Shown one piece after another: positions 5,993-21,107 of a stretch of DNA of 30,060 nucleotides (the first letter of the stretch is position 1; the number at the start of each line of letters is the position of its first letter). A program made the translations under genes and the position numbers. Source of the stretch: a virus. Taxonomy: Duplodnaviria; Caudoviricetes. The notes under the pieces were generated by a model. It was not told the DNA's origin. It searched no databases and was given only the letters and a program-made list of their open reading frames with translations. The stretch spans positions 1 through 30,060 of the IMG/VR virus record IMGVR_UViG_3300037506_000112; one strand, 5' to 3'.

Positions 5993-8122
5993 TTATCCCC
6001 TGACGCCGGTGATGACCTCGAACGCCTCATCGTAGAGAACGGCGACATCAACGTATGTCCATGCGACGATCACGGTCATCAGATCGTTTGATCGGCTGTA
6101 CGGATCGACCAGAAACTCAAACTGGTTGCTGAGGCCCAGCGCCAGCCATTTCCAAACGCCCGCGAAGATCGTCGAGCAATCCGAAGACGAACCTACCACT
6201 TGGTTGATGGGGATCAGGTTGGTGGTTTCCCACCCATATCCTGCAATGTCACGTTCCTCTTTGTTAGCCCAAGTGCCGCGCAGAATCGGACGCCCCGTTG
6301 TGTCGGTCATGTCCGCAAAGGTCTGCTTTGTGCGAGGAGCGAACAGAAACTGGGTAGTTTCGTCGATCTCGACGTTTGCGCTTTCGATACGCAAAATAGC
6401 CCCTGTCAGATCGGTGATCTTCGGCTTTGCCCCGTTTGTACCCAGCGAAGTTCCCGTGACCGCACGCCCCGACATCCCGGCAAGCGTTGCTAAACCGACG
6501 GGCTGCGTTCCGACGTTTGGTGCAGTTGTGCCACCTGTGCCAAACAGTGCCGCGCGCATAATGGCACGATTAATTCGGTAGGTAACCTTCTCTCGCACAC
6601 GCGACTCATAGTCCACACGGCTATTGGCGAGGTACTTGTTGGGGATCTCGATACGTGTGGCAAGCGGACGCGGATACAGCACCACGCCGCCAACGGTCTC
6701 TTCGCTCGCTGGGACTTCGGTGGCTTCACCGACCCAGTACGCCTCATGCTCCCCCTTATCCTTGGGAATCGTCAGCGACTCGACGCCATCCATGTCGTAT
6801 TGCTGGATGCCCATATCGGTCAACGGGAGCGCATCGCGCAAGGCGGGCAGAAACTCATCGGCTGTTTCATGGTTCATGATGTAACCACCAGTGTTGCCGA
6901 GTTGGTACGACTGGGCTTTCGCGCCCTTCATGTCCCGGAACATGGGGTGGGCGTAGCGCAGCATGTCGACCAGACCGGGCTTCTTCGCGCCCTTGTTGAA
7001 GTGGACGTTGTGACGACGCGGCTTGTCCGGGCTGTTGTTCTTCCGCGTCTTGAACGGCGGCTCGTCCTCGTCTTCGTCGGGCTGCTCCAGCTCGTCGTCG
7101 ACCAGGCCGGTGAAGCGTTTCAGCGCGTCGTAGTTCAGCTTGCGACTGCGAGCTGCCGGCGCTGGTTCAGCCAGTATCTTGGCGATGCCGTTGAGCTTCG
7201 CGACGATCTCCGACTTGCCGGCGGTCTCAGCCAGGCCGAGGGCAGAGCGCAGTCCCGACATCATTTCTTCGGGCATCGCTTCGGAGGGCGTACCATTGGC
7301 ATCGCCGCTCCCCTGTAGTTGCGTGATGATTTCCTGGAGCGCAGCGGCCACCGCTTCGGGGGTAGCTTCAACGCCCAGGAATTCGGCCAGTGCGGCCAGC
7401 ATTTCCGGGGTCATCTTGACTCCTTGTGTTTCTAGAGACGTTTGGCTATCCCGTCGTTGCGCCTCCCGCGCCTCGGACGGAGGTAGTTGCTTCAGGTATT
7501 TCTTCAGGGCTGACTTGAAGGCTTTGATAGAGACCGGGCCTAACCCCGGCTCGGCAGGATCGCGGGTCAGTGAGCATCCGGCAAACGGCCAGACACCCAG
7601 ACGCCCATCAGTCGGATCGAACCCTTGTTGGACATAGTGGCGGATGCTGTCGGAGCTATAGGCAAACTCGCCGTTCTCGCAGCCCTCACGGGTCTTCTCG
7701 AATAGTGGATGCTCCTGGTGCAGCTCGTGCTCCAACCAAACGCCGTAGCCGTAGATCGCCGCCTGGGTGCGGCGACCAATCGGCGTCGCGTCATATTCTT
7801 CGAAGCCGTGCTCGCCCCACAGCGGCGCGCCCTGGTAATATTCCAGCAACAGCTTCGTGGCACGGTCGAAATATTCCTTGTGCTCATCCCGCACGTTCGC
7901 ATCGGTGAACAGCATTGCCCAGCCCTGGACGATGACCTTGCCATCGGCGGTGGTGCGGCTCTTAACTGCGTAGCGCGCTTTGGTGACCGCACCCCAGGCA
8001 GCCGCGGCGGCTTTCTCTTCGCTGCTCGTTTGGGCATAAACAGCATTGAAGACTTCGAGCCACTGGCGCTGCTCTTCAGGGTTCAGGTCGCGCACAGAAG
8101 GCGGTAAGGTGCTAAGGCTCAT
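5993..8122 (-). CDS. Fused ChaB-like domain + prohead protease + scaffold + HK97-fold major capsid protein
   Basis: Start at ATG 8122 after GAGGAG (track starts at 8152). ChaB-like LPPSVRDL…QWLEVFNAVY…EEKAAAAAWGAV. Protease-like VQGWAMLF…D…F…PLWGEHG…PIG…YSS…SLTRDPAEP. Helical, acidic scaffold. Capsid motifs GGYIM…AYWVGEATEVP…ALFGTG…QPVGL…DTTGRPI…IAGY. Confidence 0.9.
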   Translation of the reverse strand: MSLSTLPPSVRDLNPEEQRQWLEVFNAVYAQTSSEEKAAAAAWGAVTKARYAVKSRTTADGKVIVQGWAMLFTDANVRDEHKEYFDRATKLLLEYYQGAPLWGEHGFEEYDATPIGRRTQAAIYGYGVWLEHELHQEHPLFEKTREGCENGEFAYSSDSIRHYVQQGFDPTDGRLGVWPFAGCSLTRDPAEPGLGPVSIKAFKSALKKYLKQLPPSEAREAQRRDSQTSLETQGVKMTPEMLAALAEFLGVEATPEAVAAALQEIITQLQGSGDANGTPSEAMPEEMMSGLRSALGLAETAGKSEIVAKLNGIAKILAEPAPAARSRKLNYDALKRFTGLVDDELEQPDEDEDEPPFKTRKNNSPDKPRRHNVHFNKGAKKPGLVDMLRYAHPMFRDMKGAKAQSYQLGNTGGYIMNHETADEFLPALRDALPLTDMGIQQYDMDGVESLTIPKDKGEHEAYWVGEATEVPASEETVGGVVLYPRPLATRIEIPNKYLANSRVDYESRVREKVTYRINRAIMRAALFGTGGTTAPNVGTQPVGLATLAGMSGRAVTGTSLGTNGAKPKITDLTGAILRIESANVEIDETTQFLFAPRTKQTFADMTDTTGRPILRGTWANKEERDIAGYGWETTNLIPINQVVGSSSDCSTIFAGVWKWLALGLSNQFEFLVDPYSRSNDLMTVIVAWTYVDVAVLYDEAFEVITGVRG
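7412..7425 (-). promoter_or_regulatory. Internal in-frame RBS and ATG (AAGGAG-tcaag-ATG) for a scaffold-capsid product
   Basis: Strong Shine-Dalgarno 5 nt before the in-frame Met of MTPEMLAAL, at the protease/scaffold boundary. Confidence 0.6.
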
Positions 8123-8462
8123 TGGACTCCTCAATGGACAGGGCCTTGGCAACTTCGGTTCTAATCAATTCCCGCAATTCAGGACGATCAGACAGCTTCT
8201 CGACTGCCAATACGCCACGAATCACGATGAAGTTCATGTCCTTATATTGGGTTTTCAGGCAGCGAAGCAGATCTCCAACCTGTTGCATATCCGTCTTCGC
8301 GGAATCGAAACCCACGATTGAAAGATGTGGTTCAAGCAGATACAGCATGATATGGCTATTGCGTGGATCAATCTTGTAAGGCGCAATCATGTCAACCGAA
8401 CAACGCACACCTATCACATGCTCAGATATCCACTGCCAGACCCGTGAAATATTCAGTCGCAT
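8112..8462 (-). CDS. Hypothetical protein
   Basis: ATG 8462 lies 2 nt after the upstream stop and follows a G-rich RBS (track starts at 8489). Its 3' end overlaps the capsid gene start. Confidence 0.55.
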   Translation of the reverse strand: MRLNISRVWQWISEHVIGVRCSVDMIAPYKIDPRNSHIMLYLLEPHLSIVGFDSAKTDMQQVGDLLRCLKTQYKDMNFIVIRGVLAVEKLSDRPELRELIRTEVAKALSIEESNEP

Positions 8463-8464
8463 CT

Positions 8465-8950
8465 CTACACCCCCACCACCTGGAACCAACCGTCGATCAT
8501 CTTGTCGTTGGCCTTTTCGCTGATATCGATCAAGCCCTGATCGAACCCTTCTCCCCAGCCAGTCTTCTTATGCCCCGGACTCTGCCATGCGCCAAACACG
8601 TAAATTGCTGCTGGATCGTCGTTGAAGATCGACATGAAGCCGTCGTTACGGCGACGATCTACCCTGACCTGCCAGGCATCTTCGACGCCGGGATCGCGGC
8701 GCTTGGTGGGAATACCCTGACCGAAACCGTCGCTCGCGAAAAAGGCTTGCTGGCTAAGCAACGAGGCAAACTCAAATGGCGAGCTAACAGGCAATGGCGC
8801 TCTGGTCAGTGCTGAATCCGCCACCAGGCCCTCGACATACGGTTTGACCGTGCGGTCGACATACTCACCAAACCGACCCGGAGCGGTACGCGCCGACTCG
8901 CGGTAGGCCAACAGCACATCATCGTCGAAGATCAGCGCGCTGTAGAACAT
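8465..8950 (-). CDS. Putative virion morphogenesis/neck protein (HK97 gp10-like)
   Basis: 161 aa, TGATG overlap with the portal gene. IFNDDPAAIYVFG…Q..GH…GW loosely resembles this family. Synteny agrees. Confidence 0.4.
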   Translation of the reverse strand: MFYSALIFDDDVLLAYRESARTAPGRFGEYVDRTVKPYVEGLVADSALTRAPLPVSSPFEFASLLSQQAFFASDGFGQGIPTKRRDPGVEDAWQVRVDRRRNDGFMSIFNDDPAAIYVFGAWQSPGHKKTGWGEGFDQGLIDISEKANDKMIDGWFQVVGV

Positions 8951-11769
8951 CAGCTTCCCTCCGCGATGGGTTCGGGATGCTCGTGATCATCAGCCGACTT
9001 GGGGCCGATGAGTGCAGGCGGGGTTCGCTCCGATACAGGTTCATCCGTCGGGTCAAATCGACACCCGCAGTTGAATCCGTGACAATTGAGCTTGCGACTC
9101 TTCGGCGTAATGCCCAGCTTCGCCCATTCGTCACCGGTCAACACCAGACCATCGAGCGCCTTGCAGTCCGGACAGCTACCGGGCTTCGAGGGATCGCGTC
9201 GCCACTTGAAGCGCTTCTCACGACCCAGCAGAACCTTGGCGATATCTTCCTGTCTTCGGAAGCCTTCGACCCACAAATCGGCGCGCTGGAGCAATGGCGC
9301 AAGCTGCCCGCCCTTGACTTTCGTACCCGCGTCAACGGCATCCGCAAACCCGGTGATAAACGTCGCTTCGTCCGCGATCTCGGCTTCTAGTCGGTTGAGA
9401 TCCGTTGCGCTCAATGCATCAAGCGACAGGCCGTAGCCTTTGGCAACGTCTGCCCAAGCTGCATGATAATTGCGCCGCACAGCTAGAAACATGCCATCGG
9501 TGAAGTCGAACTTGGTGATCTGACCCGCCCAGAAACCGCGCACCTGAGATCGAATGGTGCGGCGGTAATCGTCGATGCCCTTGATCCCGGCCAAGCGATC
9601 AAATGCCACTTCGACCTCCGCCTTGTCGGCCAGGGCGCTTTTTGCCACATCGAACACCTGTGGAATCTCGTGCTTCTCGTCGAGAAGCGATTCACGAATG
9701 AAGGTGACGATCTCGTGATCGGCCAGCTCGCGTGGCTCGAAGGCATAGGTACGACCTTTGCGCTCGCAAATCTTGCGCCAGTCGGTGAGTTCCTTGAACT
9801 GTGCATCGGGTATCCAGTCGCGCTTCTCGGATGCCGGAGCAGCTTCATCGGCTTTGTTGTCGTCCTCGTTCCAGGGACAGCGATAAGCGATATCGTCACC
9901 GACGCCGAGTAGCAGTTCCTGCGGCGTGACCTGGATCTTGGTGTGGAAAGTGATCGCCGGAGGCTTCTCGCTCGCATAACCCATCGTGATGTGTGGCTTG
10001 TATTTCTCTGGAAGCGAGTAGGTACTCAGGCTCAGCCCATGCCCGATACACAGGTCGTAAAGGCTTTCCTGAAGTTCAAGCAATATCGGGTTGTTGCGGA
10101 CGCGGAAGTGCAGTGCGTGTTCACCCAGGTTGTCAAACGAATTGAGTGAGCCGACCCAGAGCGCCAGATCTTCCGGCCAGTCAATGTCGGCCAGCGAATT
10201 CTTCACAGCGGTGATCTGTGCATCCGTAACTGCTGGCGCGTAGATCAGCGTCACATGGAAACTGTCGGGTGCGTTCCATTTGACGGGGATCGCCGCGCAC
10301 CGTTCCTTGACAGTAGCTTGGAGCGCGATGAGATCCGGGTTGTTGCTGAGGCCGATCATGAGACATAGCGATTTCGAGCCTTCAGGCGGTTGTGTATCGG
10401 CTTGTGTCGCTGCCGGAAGCTGCGGAATAGCAGCGTCACCATCGCCCGCTTCTGTTGGCCTGGGTGGCAACGGATGCGCGGATTCATCCACCTGGTTTGG
10501 TGTGCTGGTGTCTACGGAAGGGGCAGGCAATGCTGGTGACCGCACCTGGTCGATCTGGGAGATATGCGTAGGCAGACCACCCCAGATGTAATAGTCCCTC
10601 AACCGTTCTATCGCGTCGCCGTCCACGTCGACTTGCGTCGCCTTGGCCGCTGAGTATAGAGATCGGTAGCCGCCTTGAACCTGGGCGTTAACCACATTCG
10701 TTTTGGCCGCCATATCCTCTTTGAGGATGCCGACCTTTGACGAATCGATAGCAACGGTCAGTCCAGAACCGTATCGCTGGACAACTGCATAATCGCTGCA
10801 CAGGTCTTCGGTGTAGCGTTCGGCGTACCATTCCCAGCGCGGCACTAACCAGGATTGGCCCCAGTCACGTCGCGCCACCTCGGCCTGGGCGTAGTTGGAG
10901 GCCGATTCGCGGATCAGAGCGAGGGGCATGTCGAACGCCATCGACACCGCTTCAAATGACTGATCAAACTGCTCGGTGAAGGCGTTTTCGTCCCACTTTC
11001 CCTGCAGTTGCACCCACTCCCAGCGCATCGTCTGAATGAGTGTGCGACCAGCGTTGCGCGCACCCTGATACAGGCGCTGGAGCATCCGCTGCATCATGGG
11101 CACCGTTTTTCCATCCGTAAGGGGATTCTCCCCTTCTGCCGGTTGGACAATCGCGGCAGGGACGGCGCGGTTGCGCATGAACGAAACCTGCGTTTCGACC
11201 ATCTCGACGCCGAGTTCCGCATAGCGAAAGGCGACTTCCACCGGTGCAACGCCGTCGAAGTCATCTTCGAAATCGATGCTGTGCATGTACACCGCATCAC
11301 GGCGCTCGATTTTCTGGCGCGGTACTTCATAGCCGCGACCACGCCGGATAACTCGGAAGCCCTTCAGCCCGCCGCGCAAGTCTTCGTCGGGATACCACAG
11401 GGACGGGTTGATCCAGCGCAACTTATAAATCGACCCGGAATAGTTGCGGTTCTTCCACAACAGATTGCGGCCCCAGAAGCAAAGCGACAGTTCCGAGCGG
11501 CGCATGTTATCGCGATAATCGCGAGACATGGCCTGCATCAACGGATCGGTCTTCGAGAGCGGCTCACCGAACTTGTCCTTTATGACCAGCTCGCCGAGAG
11601 CCACCGCATCAGCGCGCTTGTTGCCTGCACGATAGGCTACAACCGATGTGGCGTAGAGACGGGCAAGATCGTGCGATGTCGCGTCGGGCCGGTCTGTCGA
11701 GATGAACTGGTCAAGCCAGGTCTTCAGCGCTTCAGGTCGTGTGTCTCGGCGCAGGATAAAGAGGCTCAT
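8950..11769 (-). CDS. Portal protein fused to a 2H phosphoesterase (LigT/Acb1-like) and a C-terminal MuF-like head morphogenesis domain
   Basis: Start ATG 11769 overlaps the TerL stop (ATGA). Portal motifs LCFWGRN…LRWINPS…GVAPVE…FMRNRAVPAAIV…GARNAG…VSMAFDMP…SNYAQAE. Pro-rich linker. Two HxT motifs (FHVTL 10249-10257, PHITM 9985-9993). C-terminal KRFKW…SCPDCKALDG…CHGFNCGC. Confidence 0.88.
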   Translation of the reverse strand: MSLFILRRDTRPEALKTWLDQFISTDRPDATSHDLARLYATSVVAYRAGNKRADAVALGELVIKDKFGEPLSKTDPLMQAMSRDYRDNMRRSELSLCFWGRNLLWKNRNYSGSIYKLRWINPSLWYPDEDLRGGLKGFRVIRRGRGYEVPRQKIERRDAVYMHSIDFEDDFDGVAPVEVAFRYAELGVEMVETQVSFMRNRAVPAAIVQPAEGENPLTDGKTVPMMQRMLQRLYQGARNAGRTLIQTMRWEWVQLQGKWDENAFTEQFDQSFEAVSMAFDMPLALIRESASNYAQAEVARRDWGQSWLVPRWEWYAERYTEDLCSDYAVVQRYGSGLTVAIDSSKVGILKEDMAAKTNVVNAQVQGGYRSLYSAAKATQVDVDGDAIERLRDYYIWGGLPTHISQIDQVRSPALPAPSVDTSTPNQVDESAHPLPPRPTEAGDGDAAIPQLPAATQADTQPPEGSKSLCLMIGLSNNPDLIALQATVKERCAAIPVKWNAPDSFHVTLIYAPAVTDAQITAVKNSLADIDWPEDLALWVGSLNSFDNLGEHALHFRVRNNPILLELQESLYDLCIGHGLSLSTYSLPEKYKPHITMGYASEKPPAITFHTKIQVTPQELLLGVGDDIAYRCPWNEDDNKADEAAPASEKRDWIPDAQFKELTDWRKICERKGRTYAFEPRELADHEIVTFIRESLLDEKHEIPQVFDVAKSALADKAEVEVAFDRLAGIKGIDDYRRTIRSQVRGFWAGQITKFDFTDGMFLAVRRNYHAAWADVAKGYGLSLDALSATDLNRLEAEIADEATFITGFADAVDAGTKVKGGQLAPLLQRADLWVEGFRRQEDIAKVLLGREKRFKWRRDPSKPGSCPDCKALDGLVLTGDEWAKLGITPKSRKLNCHGFNCGCRFDPTDEPVSERTPPALIGPKSADDHEHPEPIAEGS

Positions 11770-13205
11770 GCTATTGCCCCTTCCCATTCACCACCAGCTT
11801 GCTTGTTCGCCATGAGCGAAAGGACATAGCTCACTGCCCGATCATCCATCTCGCCGGGCGGCGCGCTCAGCGTTGAGCCTTCAATGCTGGCAAGCTGCTG
11901 TTGCACCAGGAACGTGTGGATGATCGTGTCACCGTCACGGAAGGTAGGGGCGGCGTGGTCATACAAGAGCACCTTGCTAAGGTCTGTTGTGTGCCAGCCG
12001 ATTTTCTTGTCGTGTCCGCGCAGGAGAGTCAGCGGGGAATGCTCGCGCAGCCACAAAATCACTGCGTGGCCGTGATTGTTACGCTCGACCAGCAGCGGCG
12101 CGTTATTGAAATACTTGCCGACGGTATCAGCGTGCGCGGCGAGCACTTCCGGCTGGAACTTGCCGGAGAGATGAGCGACTTCTTCCTGAGTCACGCGATC
12201 AATAAATGTGAAGCTTGATTCGTCACTGGTCGGGTTGCCCTCTGCCGGATCGACCCCGCCGACATATTTCACACCGGGTTCTGGCAACCGATAGAGCAAC
12301 AGGCCAGGGATCGCCGGGGCTGCTTTCGGTTCAAGCGATGCCATTTCGATGTAGCACCGCATCAACCACTCAGCGGAGATGCGTTTGTTCAGAGTCTTCC
12401 CGGCCAGCGCCTCAACATCCGTTGCCGGGTACTGCTCATACAGATCGTCCAGTGCGCCGGTGGCGGCCAGCGTGTCTCGCTTCTTCTGCTCGTACCATTC
12501 CAGCATGCGACCTGGATGAGCATTCCAGGGCAGGAACACGGCCTTCCAGCTATTCAGGCCTGCCTTTGCCGCACGGTAGATCTGTTTGAACCTCGAATTC
12601 GGCGTGCGCTTATCGACACGGCTAATGACGGCCAGCTTGCCGCCCGCGTCGATGGTTGGCTGAACGCGATTGAGTAAGCCGCCCTGATCCTCGACCAGGT
12701 CGAACTCGTCGGCCAGCGCGAAGGTCGCCGTGTAGGAATCACCTGCCGAGGTAGGGAAAGCACGGGCAATGCTGCCGTTCGACAAGCCAAAGATATGCCT
12801 GTCGTCCGTGGTGACGCTCTGTGCCTGCATCCACTCTGGCAAGCGGTAGTACATGCCGCGCAAACGCTCAGGGCCGAGCAGGTACACGGCTTCGTCGTCC
12901 CGCTTGGAGAAGATGAGGATAGTGGCAATGGGGTAGAAAATCATCAACCACAGGGCATAACCGAGCATGAGCCAGGTCATGCCGAGCTGGCGAGCTTTGA
13001 GTGCGATGAGAAGCTGGAACTGTTGGAGAAACCGCAGCACTTTGAACTGGGCGGGCCACAGCTTGAACGGTATCCAGCCCAGCGCTTCGGCATCATACAC
13101 CTGGCAATAGGTGTCGATGAAATACGCCACGCTGCGCTTGCACTTGCGCCATTCGACCAAGCGAGGATCGACGACAGGTTCAGTCGTCTGCCGTATCGCT
13201 ACCAA
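11766..13205 (-). CDS. terL: Terminase large subunit
   Basis: TTG start after GAGGAGG. Q motif LWPAQ, Walker A-like KARQLGMT, Walker B ALADE, RNase H-like nuclease GVDPAEG…DES…VERNNHG…DDRAVS. Confidence 0.95.
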   Translation of the reverse strand: MVAIRQTTEPVVDPRLVEWRKCKRSVAYFIDTYCQVYDAEALGWIPFKLWPAQFKVLRFLQQFQLLIALKARQLGMTWLMLGYALWLMIFYPIATILIFSKRDDEAVYLLGPERLRGMYYRLPEWMQAQSVTTDDRHIFGLSNGSIARAFPTSAGDSYTATFALADEFDLVEDQGGLLNRVQPTIDAGGKLAVISRVDKRTPNSRFKQIYRAAKAGLNSWKAVFLPWNAHPGRMLEWYEQKKRDTLAATGALDDLYEQYPATDVEALAGKTLNKRISAEWLMRCYIEMASLEPKAAPAIPGLLLYRLPEPGVKYVGGVDPAEGNPTSDESSFTFIDRVTQEEVAHLSGKFQPEVLAAHADTVGKYFNNAPLLVERNNHGHAVILWLREHSPLTLLRGHDKKIGWHTTDLSKVLLYDHAAPTFRDGDTIIHTFLVQQQLASIEGSTLSAPPGEMDDRAVSYVLSLMANKQAGGEWEGAIA

Positions 13206-15290: not shown

Positions 15291-15623
15291 TTAGGGCGTC
15301 GGCAATTTCCTGAGAATGCGCTTGAAGCGCTTCTTCACGAGGGGATGGGTGTATTTACTGTCCACAAGCCAGAAATCGCCGTGACGGCTGATAGCACTAC
15401 CCCGTGCGGCTAAGGTCATCGCGTAGCGGTAGGCGTTGCCTTTGGAAATGTCCATGATGTCCGCGATGAGTTGAAAGGGCGGGGCATTCCCGCCGTGATC
15501 ATAGGCATAGAACGCGACGATCAGCTCTACCCGCGTGTGCTGCCTGATGGATGTATCCTTGAGTAGTTGCAGCAACTCATCAGGCGGTTCCCAAGGTTTA
15601 TCTTCTGGTGAATAGAAGTACAT
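15291..15623 (-). CDS. Winged-helix DNA-binding protein resembling the LexA N-terminal domain (no peptidase domain)
   Basis: HGGNAPPFQLIADIMDISKGNAYRYAMTLAARG matches the LexA-type G.PP..REIA…..S…V…L..L…G pattern. Only 110 aa. Confidence 0.7.
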   Translation of the reverse strand: MYFYSPEDKPWEPPDELLQLLKDTSIRQHTRVELIVAFYAYDHGGNAPPFQLIADIMDISKGNAYRYAMTLAARGSAISRHGDFWLVDSKYTHPLVKKRFKRILRKLPTP

Positions 15624-16182: not shown

Positions 16183-16659
16183 TCAGTTCAGATTCCCCGT
16201 CCGGCCCTTGATGTAACCGAACACGAACGCATCTAGGAACGATCCGTAATCGGCTTCCGGCTCATTCTTGCGCACCGCGTCAATGAGTTTCCCCAGTCGA
16301 TTGCGCTTCATTTCAAGAACGGCCACGTGTCGCCCTCCGTCGACAAAACTCGCTTGGCACACGATCAATGCTTCAATCCGGTTCGGATCATGTGTTGGGC
16401 GAACGGAAGGCGGAGCTTCGTCTTTCTTATACTTGCTCACCCACGCCTCGGAAATGAAGAATACCTGCTGAAGATCGGGATGTTCCTTCGCGAGTTTTGC
16501 TCCAAACATCGCCATCTCGTTATGACGACCAGGGCCGAACTCCGCGAAGTAAACCAGGATAACGTTTTCGGGAGTTTCACAAATCATTTGCGGGGCGTGT
16601 TTCCCGCTCTTCATTAGAACCTCACGGGCTATGCTCACTACGGCATCCAATGTCTGCAT
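16183..16659 (-). CDS. Hypothetical protein (FISEAW motif)
   Basis: 158 aa ORF with AAGGAG RBS and globular composition. Confidence 0.7.
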   Translation of the reverse strand: MQTLDAVVSIAREVLMKSGKHAPQMICETPENVILVYFAEFGPGRHNEMAMFGAKLAKEHPDLQQVFFISEAWVSKYKKDEAPPSVRPTHDPNRIEALIVCQASFVDGGRHVAVLEMKRNRLGKLIDAVRKNEPEADYGSFLDAFVFGYIKGRTGNLN

Positions 16660-16672
16660 TGGTAATTACTCC

Positions 16673-17059
16673 TTATTCCTCATCATCATCGAATTTCAAC
16701 GGCTGATAGCGATCCGCCAGGCTCGCCTCGAAGTCGCTCACGTCCTGGATGACTTCCTCTACGGCCTGGTGCGGTACGGATGAATGACCGTTCGAGGCCA
16801 TGGCCGACAACCGATCAGCGGCGGCCAGCAAGTCCGCGATCCGCTGCTCTATTGCGCCGGACAGCACAACACCTCGCTGGAATGGTTCGACCATTTCCGC
16901 ATCGCCATACTTCTCGGCCAGCGCGATCAGGGCATTGCCGATGATCTGCTTCTGCGACCATCCCTGCCCGGCGAAATGCTTGGCTATCGCCAGCACCCGC
17001 GCTTCGATGCCTGACCATTCAGAATCGTCGAACCATGCCTGGAGGTGTTTGCGTGCCAT
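16673..17059 (-). CDS. Putative ParR-like centromere-binding adaptor
   Basis: 128 aa, 4 nt downstream of the parM-like gene. N-terminal strand-helix-helix pattern (ARKHLQAWF…RVLAIAKHF…SQKQIIGNALIAL) is compatible with an RHH fold. Acidic C-terminal tail. Confidence 0.55.
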   Translation of the reverse strand: MARKHLQAWFDDSEWSGIEARVLAIAKHFAGQGWSQKQIIGNALIALAEKYGDAEMVEPFQRGVVLSGAIEQRIADLLAAADRLSAMASNGHSSVPHQAVEEVIQDVSDFEASLADRYQPLKFDDDEE

Positions 17060-17063
17060 TGGG

Positions 17064-18221
17064 TTAGCCCTTCACCTTCTGGCGATTCAGGTGTGCGATC
17101 AGCCCCTTGCTCGCGCCCCGGATTGCGCCGAACCGCATCCGGGTGAGATCCGTTTCGCAGGGGTACACAAAATCGTGCTCAAGCACGTTGTCCTTTAGAT
17201 AGTTAAAGGACAGACCGCCACCGCCACCGCTGACGGCGATCCCCGCGGCGGTCACACCTCGCGCATACCTGTTCGCGTATTGCGCTTCAATTGGATTACC
17301 AATGACCGCCATTGAGTTGGCAACCTGTTCGGCGCAATCTTCAGACCGGTTACGGATCGAAATCTTTCCGGTCATCAGCGCGTTGTGCATCATGTTCAGG
17401 GGGATCTCCGGCAAGCGGCCCAGCGTGTTGGGGAAAGCTGCACGCAGTTCCTGCTCGAAGGTTTCGATGACATCCTGGATACCCTTGCGGATCGGGGGGG
17501 CTTCCGAGATGTTGACCTCGATCTTGCGGTCTTCCGTAATGAGGCATGGCACGAACACGGTCAGCGCGCCGCCGACATCTACCGTGTAAATTTCGTTCCC
17601 TGGCTCCAGGGCAATCGGTGACTTCTCGTAAGTCCGTCCCTCGGTGGTGAGAAGAAACGTCTGCAAGCTCGCTACCGGCTCTTCGAGCGGGATGATCTCG
17701 GTGACATTGAAGTTGAACTTGCGCCCGTCGGGCAGATCAACGCTGTGCTTACCGTTAAGCGACTTATAGAGTGCCCTAAGATTTTCCGTGTTCAGGCGTG
17801 GCGGGTGCAGCACGACGACACGGACATCCTGGTGCGAGCCGTGATAGAGCTGTACAAGCGCGGCCAGGAACAATACGCCGAAGTGGTCACGAAGATATTT
17901 CGCGGCTCCGATCAGGCGCTCGCCTTTGCCGACCTGCGCAGCGTGCCGCCCTACTACATAGCCCTGCCCGGCAATGCGGAAGATGGCCGTTCCTTGGAAG
18001 TCAGCCGCCCGGTGTTTATAGGCTGCCGTCAACGTGTCATAGTCAGCTTCACTTGGCCGACGAATGGCGTGCGGAAAAACGATCTCCTCACCCCAATGAC
18101 CATGCAGCATGGCTTTACAGTCCGTGTTGCCCAGGTCAACGATAATCCACAACGGCTCGTCCTGGCCGATGTGGCGATATTTAGTACCGTTCCGGTAGGT
18201 ACTCCATACGGGAGCGTTCAT
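17064..18221 (-). CDS. parM: Actin-like ATPase, ParM/StbA family
   Basis: Start ATG 18221 after AAGGAG (track starts at 18254). Phosphate-1 IVDLGNTDCK, connect-1 EEPVAS, phosphate-2 VDVGGALT, adenosine VSGGGG, connect-2 AIRGASKG. Confidence 0.85.
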   Translation of the reverse strand: MNAPVWSTYRNGTKYRHIGQDEPLWIIVDLGNTDCKAMLHGHWGEEIVFPHAIRRPSEADYDTLTAAYKHRAADFQGTAIFRIAGQGYVVGRHAAQVGKGERLIGAAKYLRDHFGVLFLAALVQLYHGSHQDVRVVVLHPPRLNTENLRALYKSLNGKHSVDLPDGRKFNFNVTEIIPLEEPVASLQTFLLTTEGRTYEKSPIALEPGNEIYTVDVGGALTVFVPCLITEDRKIEVNISEAPPIRKGIQDVIETFEQELRAAFPNTLGRLPEIPLNMMHNALMTGKISIRNRSEDCAEQVANSMAVIGNPIEAQYANRYARGVTAAGIAVSGGGGGLSFNYLKDNVLEHDFVYPCETDLTRMRFGAIRGASKGLIAHLNRQKVKG

Positions 18222-18236
18222 GATTTTCTCCTTGTC

Positions 18237-18281
18237 TATACGACTTTTATACACTTCATATACAGGTTGGATAACGGTTAT
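18237..18281. repeat. Three TATAC-core direct repeats at 11-bp period plus ATAAC-G-GTTAT palindrome (parC-like candidate)
   Basis: TATAC starts at 18237, 18248 and 18259. Palindrome at 18271-18281. AT-rich and immediately upstream of the parM RBS. Confidence 0.5.
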
Positions 18282-18282
18282 T

Positions 18283-18309
18283 GCATCCCCGCGAACTCGC
18301 TAGGGATGC
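18283..18309 (-). terminator. Stem-loop after the HerA-like gene
   Basis: gcatccc…gcga-ac-tcgc…gggatgc bulged hairpin, 24 nt after the stop. No clear U-tract. Confidence 0.45.
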
Positions 18310-18333: not shown

Positions 18334-19980
18334 TCATTCCGACGAATTTAAAAACAGCGTCCGACTCGCCGCGACCTGATCGCCACGGACATCGACCAGC
18401 CCATTGCGGCGCAGCGTGCCCAGATAGGTTCCGAACGTTCCGCCCGACACTTCATACCCAGCGGTATCACCGAGCGCCTTTCGTGAAAGACTCCGGGGGT
18501 AGACACCAACCAGCACGTCGAGCATCCGCCACTCGCCTGACCGGAGCGCATTGCGCCACATGGTGAGTACCTCGTTGGTTGTCTGCGGCTTGCGCGGCCT
18601 GTCCATGCCTAGGTAGTCAAATCCATCCTGGGTGATACTCACCTCGCCATCTTGCTCGACGAGCAAGGCGTTGCGCTTCAGTGTGCCGAAGTATGTGCCG
18701 AATGTTCCGCCTGACGGTGTGAAGCCTGATAATGTGCCAAGCTGGGCGCGAGTGAGCTTGGTCGGATGCCGCCGCGCCAGGACTTCCAGGATGCGGCGTT
18801 CGCCTGCTCGCAGGTGCAGATCGCCGTCAGCAGTAACTTCGTTTGTGTCTTCTGTCACAACGATTTCCGCAGGGAAAACTACACCACGCTTCAGGCAGGC
18901 CATGATCTCATTGGCCGAGTCGATGAGCAGTTGCGCTTGTTCTCGCATTTCTTCGGCAAGAGCGGTTAGTTGATCGACCTGCGCATCGGAGATAACAGGC
19001 ACTTCTACCCGCTCAACTTCACGAGAGCGCAGTCGGGCGTTTTCTTCTCGGAGGTGTTGGATAAGTTCCGGCTGATCGGCTGCGGCTAGTGGGACTGTCA
19101 GCAGTGCCTTCAGTTCGTCGATAAGGGCCGAATCGCCGGGCATAAGGGGGGGTGGAACGAATAGAGTCTTGTCCTCTGGTCGGAAGGTATCGCTTTGCCG
19201 CACCTGAATCACCTGAGCATCGTCCTGGATCATGAAGATGGCCTCACCACGATCCAGACCCGGCACGATGTCTTTCGCGTTGGCGAGTGATCCGGGCAGC
19301 AAATCATCGTAGACCTTCAACGTGCGACCACGCGGCACGCGATGGAGGAACCGGATATCGGTGGCATCCAGTACGGCCTTATCGACGTTCTGCGGACGCT
19401 GGCTGGCGACGAGCAGGGCCAACCCCCGTTTCCGGCCACGTGCCGCGATGTCCTGGATCAGTTCCTTGGCGTCGGTTTGCGGCCCTTGCGGTGCGAAGAG
19501 CTGCACCTCGTCGATGATCAGGCGCATGGGTGGCAGATCTTCGTACTGGTACATTGCCCAGAGACAGCCGACGTAGGCCAGTACGAAGCTGTTCTTACTT
19601 CCGAGCGGCCAACCGCTCAGATCCAGGATCACCCTCTCGCTACGTCGGGTAAGCAGTTCGGCTGCTTGTCCGGCGCGTTCAATGCTGATCTCGACATCCA
19701 GCGGATTGCCGCGCCGGGCATTCCCGATGATGAGAATCTCCGCGCCGTTCCGAAGATGATGAAAGTCACCTTCAGGATCGAGGATCGTCAACGTGCCGCC
19801 CGCACGTAGTTCTTCTTCCGCCCAGACATAGGCGGTGTTGGTCTTACCGCTGCCCGTCATGCCGAGCACGGCGACATGTTTGCCTAACGTCTGAACATAA
19901 GGCAGATGCGCTTTTTGTTTTGCATCCAGATGCATCTTGTACTCCGCATCTAGATACAATAACGCTAGTCCGTTCAACAT
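18334..19980 (-). CDS. HerA/FtsK-superfamily (DUF87-like) ATPase with coiled-coil and two C-terminal winged-helix repeats
   Basis: HVAVLGMTGSGKT (Walker A), ILDPEGDF, LIIDEVQLFAP (Walker B), GRKRG arginine finger, ASQRP. Duplicated LRxGExRxLxVL…SGGTFGTYxGTLxRNxL. GGAG RBS with TGATG overlap. Confidence 0.88.
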   Translation of the reverse strand: MLNGLALLYLDAEYKMHLDAKQKAHLPYVQTLGKHVAVLGMTGSGKTNTAYVWAEEELRAGGTLTILDPEGDFHHLRNGAEILIIGNARRGNPLDVEISIERAGQAAELLTRRSERVILDLSGWPLGSKNSFVLAYVGCLWAMYQYEDLPPMRLIIDEVQLFAPQGPQTDAKELIQDIAARGRKRGLALLVASQRPQNVDKAVLDATDIRFLHRVPRGRTLKVYDDLLPGSLANAKDIVPGLDRGEAIFMIQDDAQVIQVRQSDTFRPEDKTLFVPPPLMPGDSALIDELKALLTVPLAAADQPELIQHLREENARLRSREVERVEVPVISDAQVDQLTALAEEMREQAQLLIDSANEIMACLKRGVVFPAEIVVTEDTNEVTADGDLHLRAGERRILEVLARRHPTKLTRAQLGTLSGFTPSGGTFGTYFGTLKRNALLVEQDGEVSITQDGFDYLGMDRPRKPQTTNEVLTMWRNALRSGEWRMLDVLVGVYPRSLSRKALGDTAGYEVSGGTFGTYLGTLRRNGLVDVRGDQVAASRTLFLNSSE

Positions 19981-20243
19981 CAGACTCCTCGCTTTCGGTA
20001 ATCGACAACCAGCTTGCCCGTCGTGTCCACAAATTCGCGGGCTACTTCAAGCTGGCCATCACGGAGTAACGCCCGGAACGTGGATGGGTAGAAGCGCACC
20101 AGTTCACCGTCGCAGACGCCTATCCCCGGATTCCCGCCGTTCTCCACATCCGCCTTGGCGATACGAATGATCGCGCCCTGTTCCAGGCACATCATGGCTC
20201 GCTTGTAGTCCTGCGTGTCGATCCACATATCATCAAGCCTCAA
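19980..20243 (-). CDS. Hypothetical protein
   Basis: 87 aa ORF overlapping neighbours at both ends. Confidence 0.55.
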   Translation of the reverse strand: MRLDDMWIDTQDYKRAMMCLEQGAIIRIAKADVENGGNPGIGVCDGELVRFYPSTFRALLRDGQLEVAREFVDTTGKLVVDYRKRGV

Positions 20244-20508
20244 CTAGATAACCGTGTACCGTGCGGCGATACTCTTGCTTTTTCGACTCAGGTACGTTGT
20301 CTTCGAGACGGCAGGTGTCCGAGCCACCCCAGATAAATTGGCCGATTTTGGGTCGATACGTGAAATCTTTCACGCGAACTAATGGCCTGCCGGGGTTACT
20401 TACTCCCCACTTGCCGCTTGCATCTTGGTAAATACGAGGCCCCAGGATCAGTATTAGGTCGCCGTTAGCTTCCTTTACATTCATCACTACCGCATCGATA
20501 GCCATCAT
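20233..20508 (-). CDS. Hypothetical protein
   Basis: 91 aa, GGAGGG RBS, ATGA overlap with the HAD gene. Confidence 0.65.
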   Translation of the reverse strand: MMAIDAVVMNVKEANGDLILILGPRIYQDASGKWGVSNPGRPLVRVKDFTYRPKIGQFIWGGSDTCRLEDNVPESKKQEYRRTVHGYLVEA

Positions 20509-21107
20509 TCCCCTCCGTTTTCAGGCTTTGGACGCCCGAAGAATTCCCAGGCCCACTGGAAGGCACACCCGGCGTTTTCGGCGGCCTGTTTATCCTCGTC
20601 GCCGTCACCGACCATGAGCGTTTCCTCTGGCGCTGTTCCGCACAGGCCCATCGCATGGAATAACATCCCTGGTTCAGGTTTGCGCCACTCTGGATGCCAC
20701 ATGGCCCCTGGCAAGACCCCCGGCGGAAGGGGCGACCACGCCCCAGTTTTCTTGCTCTGGTAGCGCGCGCACATCAGAATGGTTGGCTTGAGCGCGGGAA
20801 ACATACGCCCGATCCGGCCCTCAAAGTCTTCCAGGGTTGGGTATTTATCCGGCTCTCCGAAGCCTCCCACTGACATCCAGTGTCGGAGTCCGATCCCGCC
20901 TTGATTGGTTGCCACGATAATTTGCTTATTCAGTACCGCTTCCTGATTGGTCTCCAGCCATGCCGCCGCATCGGGGTAGAGCTGATCTGAATCGAACGGG
21001 GCAAGTGTGCCGTCGAGGTCAAAAATAATGAGCTTGAATTTAGAGTTCACAGTTGTATCCTCCGGTTGCCCGTACATTTCATTCATGTACTGTTCTAGTG
21101 CGTCCAT
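20505..21107 (-). CDS. HAD-superfamily subfamily IIIA phosphatase (GmhB / polynucleotide 3'-phosphatase-like)
   Basis: Motif I IIFDLDGTL, motif II ATNQGGI, motif III RKPEPGM, motif IV MVGDGDEDKQAAENAG. Confidence 0.9.
   Translation of the reverse strand: MDALEQYMNEMYGQPEDTTVNSKFKLIIFDLDGTLAPFDSDQLYPDAAAWLETNQEAVLNKQIIVATNQGGIGLRHWMSVGGFGEPDKYPTLEDFEGRIGRMFPALKPTILMCARYQSKKTGAWSPLPPGVLPGAMWHPEWRKPEPGMLFHAMGLCGTAPEETLMVGDGDEDKQAAENAGCAFQWAWEFFGRPKPENGGE

Follow-up and report, generated by a model that had tools for sequence, protein, structure and literature searches.

The locus described here raises the question of whether a tailed phage carries a plasmid-type partition machine and, if so, what such a machine does for the phage. 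The DNA analysed (the window) is an entire virus record of 30,060 bp, linear and 38% complete according to CheckV. A first-pass annotation had read a complete-looking type II (actin-like) parMRC cassette in it and had inferred that the phage persists as an extrachromosomal plasmid or uses filaments to position replicating DNA. The parMRC-like layout was upheld by our analysis. A plasmid lifestyle is a possibility only; the carriers of the cassette differ, one being a provirus (G001) and another a circle (G005). A DNA-linked actin/adaptor system of some kind is very probably encoded here, and this is much more secure than any role assigned to it.

DNA of this phage is present in two freshwater metagenome runs. 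In one of them, which may be the source sample itself, a single 21-kb contig spans the cassette and the head genes with zero differences, and another contig extends at least 11.8 kb beyond the right end of the window. The main genes all lie on the minus strand, in the order primase-polymerase, helicase, PolA, small genes, HerA-like ATPase, cassette, a few uncharacterised genes, terminase, portal and major capsid protein. The order of array, motor gene and adaptor gene within the cassette matches plasmid parMRC. The features of the cassette and its borders are as follows (positions in the window):

16183-16659, minus strand: ORF of 158 aa, 13 nt after parR and outside the conserved cassette, without Pfam, PHROG or NCBIfam match
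16673-17059, minus strand: parR-like adaptor gene, 128 aa, recognised by homologues beside an Alp (actin-like protein) gene and by the tail-motor model
17064-18221, minus strand: parM-like actin-fold NTPase gene, 385 aa, recognised by Pfam ALP_N, AF2, Foldseek and homologues
18227-18232, minus strand: parM ribosome-binding site AGGAGA, from the sequence
18236-18263, minus strand: candidate parC/operator consisting of three GTATA cores (11-bp spacing; -42, -31 and -20 relative to the ATG), recognised by sequence, matrix and offsets in L002
18246-18274, minus strand: putative sigma-70-type promoter TTATCC-17-TATAAA within the array, 8 of 12 consensus matches, from the sequence
18269-18274, minus strand: degenerate fourth core (TTATCC, position -53), which doubles as the best -35 candidate; in relatives the fourth core is complete
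18283-18309, minus strand: GC-rich hairpin between the HerA-like gene and the array, possible insulator/terminator without U-run (fold -21.3 kcal/mol, z -3.0)

The 158-aa ORF is probably co-transcribed with parR. The genes after parR in G001, in the 14-kb phage-like fragment L002 and in G005 differ from those in the window. On the other side, the HerA-like gene was rejected as a part of the cassette, as no tblastn homologue of it was found in the carrier loci.

The motor and its family

The motor gene starts with an ATG behind the ribosome-binding site. A 396-aa frame beginning at a GTG was rejected, since it would extend across the repeats and has no ribosome-binding site. The actin-fold motifs noticed earlier in the translation were confirmed: the protein matches Pfam ALP_N (E 5.5e-11), its AF2 model (pLDDT 91.7) has a ParM-type fold, and ten residues (D29, N32, K36, E181, D215, G217, G333, G334, G369 and K372) do not vary among the 35 sequences aligned, a set that includes the query and leaves out one fragment. 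Altogether 35 homologues were found, with 35-58% identity. The phosphate-2 loop reads DVGGAL; the usual form is DxGGxT. Family-specific features are RGASKG in the last helix and the DxGGx(L/I) loop.

Foldseek searches with the motor model gave Ta0583, pCBH ParM and pSK41 ParM as the best matches (E 1e-16 or better) and ranked these three, together with Bacillus thuringiensis ParM, CorM, R1 ParM and Alp7A, ahead of MreB. All matches are distant (17% identity or less). The best solved relatives are pCBH ParM of Clostridium botulinum, Ta0583 and Alp7A, with TM scores of about 0.66-0.69 at 13-16% identity; pSK41 ParM of Staphylococcus aureus matches with E 6e-17, but again with at most 17% identity. 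A single-sequence search of the PDB returned no match, and a profile search reached pCBH ParM with E 1.8e-8 and pSK41 ParM with only E 4e-4. The fold also separates the motor from type III TubZRC, whose motor has a tubulin/FtsZ fold. Clostridium c-st, previously named beside this locus as an actin-like example, belongs there, being described as encoding TubZ/TubR of the tubulin type (PMC8026635, PMC4446434).

The suggested phylogeny among Alp families placed the core motor family in a clade of its own (FastTree, 69 sequences, support 0.93), which leaves out pSK41 ParM, SPO1 gp27.9 and the Alp of G006. The motor thus represents a separate, ParM-type Alp family. Its profile matches 127 cluster representatives at E 1e-30. 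The named collections gave less: tblastn with the motor found no match at E 0.01 among 50,697 GenBank phage records and none among 72,556 PLSDB plasmid records, so that no plasmid donor was found, and there was no NCBIfam or PHROG match. Two pattern scans of GTDB genomes, which are limited by their patterns and do not prove absence, returned no motor relative; the two matches of one of these scans were discarded, since tblastn and HMM showed no relation. In viral sequences, scanning with the motor protein alone and with A1 gave no match, and the scan with A2 returned G001 as its only match.

Actin-like systems had been described as known from few phages. ParM-like and RHH pairs are in print for the Bacillus phages IEBH, vB_BtS_B83 and Bp8p-C/T, which are plasmid prophages (PMC6669507, PMC8026635), and pSK41 ParM matches 58 GenBank phage records, so the statement was too narrow. 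As described there, IEBH, B83 and Bp8p-C share with the window phage a tailed virion, an actin-type motor, a small adaptor and a putative centromere. B83 differs in its described RepA and Xer recombinases, neither of which was seen in the available 38% of the window phage genome. ParM/RHH pairs in tailed phages and AlpAC of phage CGP3 are therefore already known. New are the Alp family, its short GTATAC-type array and its spread over integrating and integrase-free phages. Word searches of the literature, which cannot find an unnamed family, returned no paper on it. What the cassette contributes is a distant family of compact (about 1.6 kb) partition systems of the actin type. Its phages are uncultured, its candidate centromere is very short, and a contact between motor and adaptor is predicted.

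The adaptor and the repeat array

The small gene with an acidic tail that had been called RHH-compatible begins 4 nt past the parM stop, and its product ends in DDDEE. The RHH assignment held as a pattern only. A candidate N-terminal beta-alpha-alpha unit, with an alternating strand-like motif and helices at residues 18-31 and 36-51, is compatible with an RHH fold and is followed by a conserved C-terminal tail (residues ~108-128). Sequence searches for RHH gave no family match at a meaningful E-value, and no library match, including NCBIfam, names the protein. Antitox_RHH was matched at E 0.1 by one of six adaptor members, and hhalign against pSK41 ParR gave a probability of 0.8%. The AF2 monomer is weak (pLDDT 55) and shows no N-terminal strand, and was therefore too poor for a fold search. 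The named atlas clusters nearest to the G001 adaptor, Plasmid_stab_B (0.83) and RHH_1 (0.79), are leads only. The RHH identity is thus putative, fitting as a pattern and not as a database match.

In G001 and L002 an adaptor homologue (about 30% identical in G001) lies directly 3' of the Alp gene, and in L001 the start of one is visible after it. The homologues share the strand-like N-terminal motif, two helices and a tail with an acidic end. In a complex model of the motor with adaptor residues 92-128, the score was 0.78, compared with 0.48 for the best control; the mark used was reached by 116 of 157 solved pairs and by 2 of 215 mismatched pairs. At least 71% of contacts were shared between runs, and the partner pLDDT was at least 57. 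The model places adaptor residues 108-121 on motor residues 148-156, 175-179, 183-197 and 373-380, a surface that would correspond, from the fold, to the IA/IIA cleft. This cleft is where the ParR tail is described to bind ParM (PMC5016525). The pass of the model may stem from likeness to solved ParM-ParR complexes.

The TATAC cores that had been noticed at 11-bp spacing over the promoter/RBS region (18237, 18248 and 18259) were recovered. They are the sole exact 5-mer triplet with a period of 8-15 in the window; however, a period-11 triplet occurred somewhere in 6% of 200 Markov-simulated 30-kb sequences, so that the triplet taken alone is a modest statistical signal. On the coding strand the cores read GTATAT (-42), GTATAA (-31) and GTATAG (-20). 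In all three relatives found through the proteins, four GT-AC cores stand 10-11 bp apart before the start codon, at -50/-39/-29/-18 in L001, -53/-42/-31/-20 in L002 and -57/-46/-36/-25 in G001, so that the last core begins 18-25 nt before the start codon. The offsets of the window are the same as those of L002. Because the cores are kept in three of three protein-found relatives, the repeats are not due to chance. When scored with a matrix derived from 22 cores at six other loci, the window site ranked first with 18.4 bits, compared with 13.4 bits for the best of 30 simulated windows, in a setting where the core pattern was chosen after the window had been seen. The array is single in each record that carries it (the window, G001, L002 and G005), and neither the matrix search of the window nor the search of G001 revealed a second one.

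The same arrangement is familiar from plasmids. In pSK41 and R1 parMRC, as in the window, repeats lie upstream of parM-parR, the small adaptor has an acidic tail and the periodicity is 10-11 bp. The pSK41 parC record contains AGTATATACT-like 10-mers, about 8 as counted by eye, with the same GTATA/TATAC core. The window array, with 3 clear cores, is about half as long, and its carrier is a tailed phage. R1 parC has ten repeats. If 3-4 cores suffice to segregate DNA, the array would be among the smallest type II centromeres, which would bear on the number of adaptor tails needed per filament end.

The array also coincides with putative promoters. The window candidate falls below the threshold of a promoter scan; in the relatives the candidates over the arrays are TTGACA-18-TATACT (L001) and TTGACT-17-TATACG (G001), and the best -35/-10 pair overlaps the array in five of five loci examined (8-11 of 12 matches). 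A hairpin was found upstream of the array in all 3 loci folded, and those of L001 and L002 have U-runs (z -6.3 and -3.3). An array that overlaps its promoter candidate and has a hairpin upstream suggests that the cassette regulates itself, outside the lytic cascade.

This overlap also bears on a different reading, which we consider improbable, namely that the array is an operator only, through which the adaptor would autoregulate its operon and tune a filament directed at the host cytoskeleton, cell division or rival elements, a kind of role that has been suggested for ParMs encoded on chromosomes. Such a reading would account for the presence of only 3-4 cores, always over a promoter, and for the position of the array between the motor and adaptor genes in the distant G006/G007 family. 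Genome-encoded ParMs are described, and among them atypical ParR behaviour (PMC12270681). Against this reading, the known parMRC centromere is described as doubling as the operator (PMC4911067, PMC5016525), with pSK41 parC described in both capacities (PMC4911067). In addition, the conserved tail is predicted to sit in the ParR-tail cleft, which would tether the filament to the array.

The core motif was also used for scans of viral contigs. At least 120 viral stretches contain GTATAC cores with 11-bp spacing. The first scan (120 loci, 40 of them with only ~300 bp of flank) returned G005, G006 and G007 as further Alp loci besides G001, and the second (43 loci) returned one more, G010. Of the motif loci, 4 of 120 and 3 of 43 had an Alp in the flank retrieved, whereas 116 and 40, respectively, had none there; a GTATA array by itself is not diagnostic of an Alp cassette. 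G005, G006, G007 and G010 are not independent tests of the motif, because they were found through it.

Many of the motif-only arrays are followed by short AT-rich repeats and look, by eye, like origin iterons inside replication-initiator genes. G006 (L071:1852-3429) and G007 (L135) represent a more distant ParM/StbA-like family in phage contigs, in which three GTATAC cores separate the motor gene from an RHH-like gene instead of preceding the motor. In G010 (L181:2501-3525), a complete phage of 36.7 kb, GTATA cores of 11-bp spacing precede an unrelated ParM (PRK13917, E 1.7e-8); a search limited to serine recombinases found none in it.

Carriers of the cassette and its role

The closest carrier with a near-whole genome is G001 (80 kb, motor 52% identical), which is classed as a provirus. 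At its left end lies an intact-looking large serine integrase, which has the catalytic, recombinase and zinc-ribbon domains and runs in the same direction as the early genes; the right end of G001 holds lysis genes. With such an integrase, this provirus has no need of a plasmid state. G005, from a sister family (motor about 26% identical), is a complete 47-kb circle with direct terminal repeats, an adaptor gene beside the motor, and genes for an O-like initiator and DnaB. No tyrosine or serine recombinase, integrase or resolvase was detected in its complete genome. In the window itself, the recommended checks of circularity and integrase met a linear record: no integrase or att sites were found within the 30 kb (38% of the genome), and no plasmid-type Rep among the 34 ORFs scanned of this 38% complete genome.

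A parMRC-like cassette alone cannot mark a phage-plasmid, because one carrier of this family is a provirus with an integrase, while a sister family occurs in a circle in which none was detected. It is also stated in the literature that ParM-like genes are no guarantee of a plasmid state in phages (PMC8026635). The neighbours of the cassette differ at every locus. Its spread over unrelated phage backbones, differing in replication and head genes, shows that it is a portable module whose presence does not fix the lifestyle.

Three phages related to the window phage through its terminase, head or replication genes were inspected for the cassette. G002, which is complete and related by terminase only, has a tyrosine integrase; G004, which is 84% complete and related by replication genes, has no detected integrase. 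No Alp was detected in these two or in G003, and no array was found in the three, two of which are incomplete. The cassette is therefore not a core lytic function of these lineages. As each shares a single module with the window phage, all three were rejected as stand-ins for the missing part of its genome.

We consider it likely that the conserved three-part cassette acts as a partition machine of type II. The parMRC-like reading is favoured by the motor fold, the kept three-part layout, the predicted tail-motor contact and the pSK41-like core. Adaptor dimers would bind the 11-bp cores, thereby repressing the promoter inside the array and building a small segrosome; their C-terminal tails would dock in the IA/IIA cleft of the motor and stabilise nucleotide-driven filaments, which in turn would push two DNA copies apart. 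The chance that the machine separates copies of the phage genome while these are free circles in a living host, whether stable or transient, seems to us about even, higher than for any other role considered here. The circle could be stable, in a plasmid prophage such as G005 may be, or transient, following excision or recent entry, as would apply to the integrase-bearing G001. For the latter, srpMRC of the SXT/R391 ICEs, a type II system reported to stabilise an integrating element during its transient circular state (PMC4489591), offers a possible model that would reconcile an integrase with parMRC, although it belongs to a conjugative element and not to a phage.

The short array, the phage's own replication enzymes and the presence of an Alp (gp27.9) in SPO1 count against partition. 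SPO1 is strictly lytic. The same machine may instead serve lytic or induced growth, its filament moving replicating DNA to the membrane or along the cell and raising the yield of replication or packaging. This we hold to be somewhat unlikely. It is consistent with the replication enzymes encoded in the window (PolA, helicase and primase-polymerase), with the Alps of SPO1-like and other Bacillus myoviruses, and with the position of the cassette, which in the window, in G005 and in the early region of G001 lies between replication genes and terminase, in the same orientation. G001 is moreover an integrase-bearing provirus like CGP3 of Corynebacterium glutamicum, for whose AlpAC a role in DNA positioning during induced growth has been proposed (PMC4446434). 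As described there, AlpC, AlpA and alpS combine an actin-like protein with an adaptor that binds repeats at its own promoter, in an integrating phage, an arrangement to which the cassette of G001 would be parallel. However, alpA lies upstream of alpC in CGP3 and the repeats are 24 copies of TTAAnnG, whereas the window has the motor first and 3-4 GTATAC-type cores, so that in gene order and array position the cassette follows plasmid parMRC and not alpAC. The promoter candidate of its own and the upstream hairpins also suggest expression apart from the early operon, and the relatives in head or replication genes (G002, G003 and G004) are without a detected Alp.

It is very improbable that the cassette is a mere passenger, acquired from a plasmid and no longer serving the phages. 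Its patchy distribution, including its absence from G004 and from G002 (complete, related by terminase), and its changing neighbours would fit such an origin. Yet both frames, the catalytic residues, the ribosome-binding site and the array are intact in four of four protein-found loci, at about 40-52% motor identity; the second assembly, possibly from the same sample, has no differences across the cassette; and the 72,556 PLSDB records contained no plasmid donor.

Chloroflexota is the phylum that occurs most often in the top atlas cluster; as to the host, this is a lead only. A broader proposal, which we regard as doubtful, is that the new Alp family with its minimal centromere of 3-4 half-sites is a plug-in among unrelated phages, probably of Chloroflexota, and would move phage DNA along or between long host cells, in integrating, integrase-free and self-replicating phages alike. 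If so, actin-driven positioning would be a general phage function and not a mark of plasmid prophages.

Other features of the window and of G001

Beyond the cassette, a 110-aa ORF just before the late genes (15291-15623, minus strand) looks by eye like a winged-helix regulator and has no family match in Pfam, PHROG or NCBIfam. The HerA/FtsK-like ATPase directly upstream of the cassette (18334-19980, minus strand) has a tandem duplicated C-terminal domain, with the repeats 267 nt apart. The 719-aa major capsid protein (5993-8152, minus strand) shows a ChaB-like N-terminal match and a possible protease/scaffold region. The 945-aa portal (8950-11787, minus strand) is fused to a LigT-like 2H phosphoesterase domain (residues ~483-620), and its further C-terminal domain is also found in the portals of G003 and G005. 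Phage 2H domains can be counter-defence enzymes.

G001 carries a low-GC cargo block (6934-12267, plus strand) with two beta-propeller proteins, one of them with a cellulose-binding CBM3 domain, and also encodes RecA, ThyX, dCTP deaminase and an intein-bearing terminase.

In one freshwater run, a variant of the window at 20227-20524 is present at about half depth, in which 296 bp are swapped for 22 other bases. The replaced segment holds a 91-aa ORF (20233-20508), and a further divergent stretch lies at 20101-20193. The variant reflects two strains that differ in an accessory gene.
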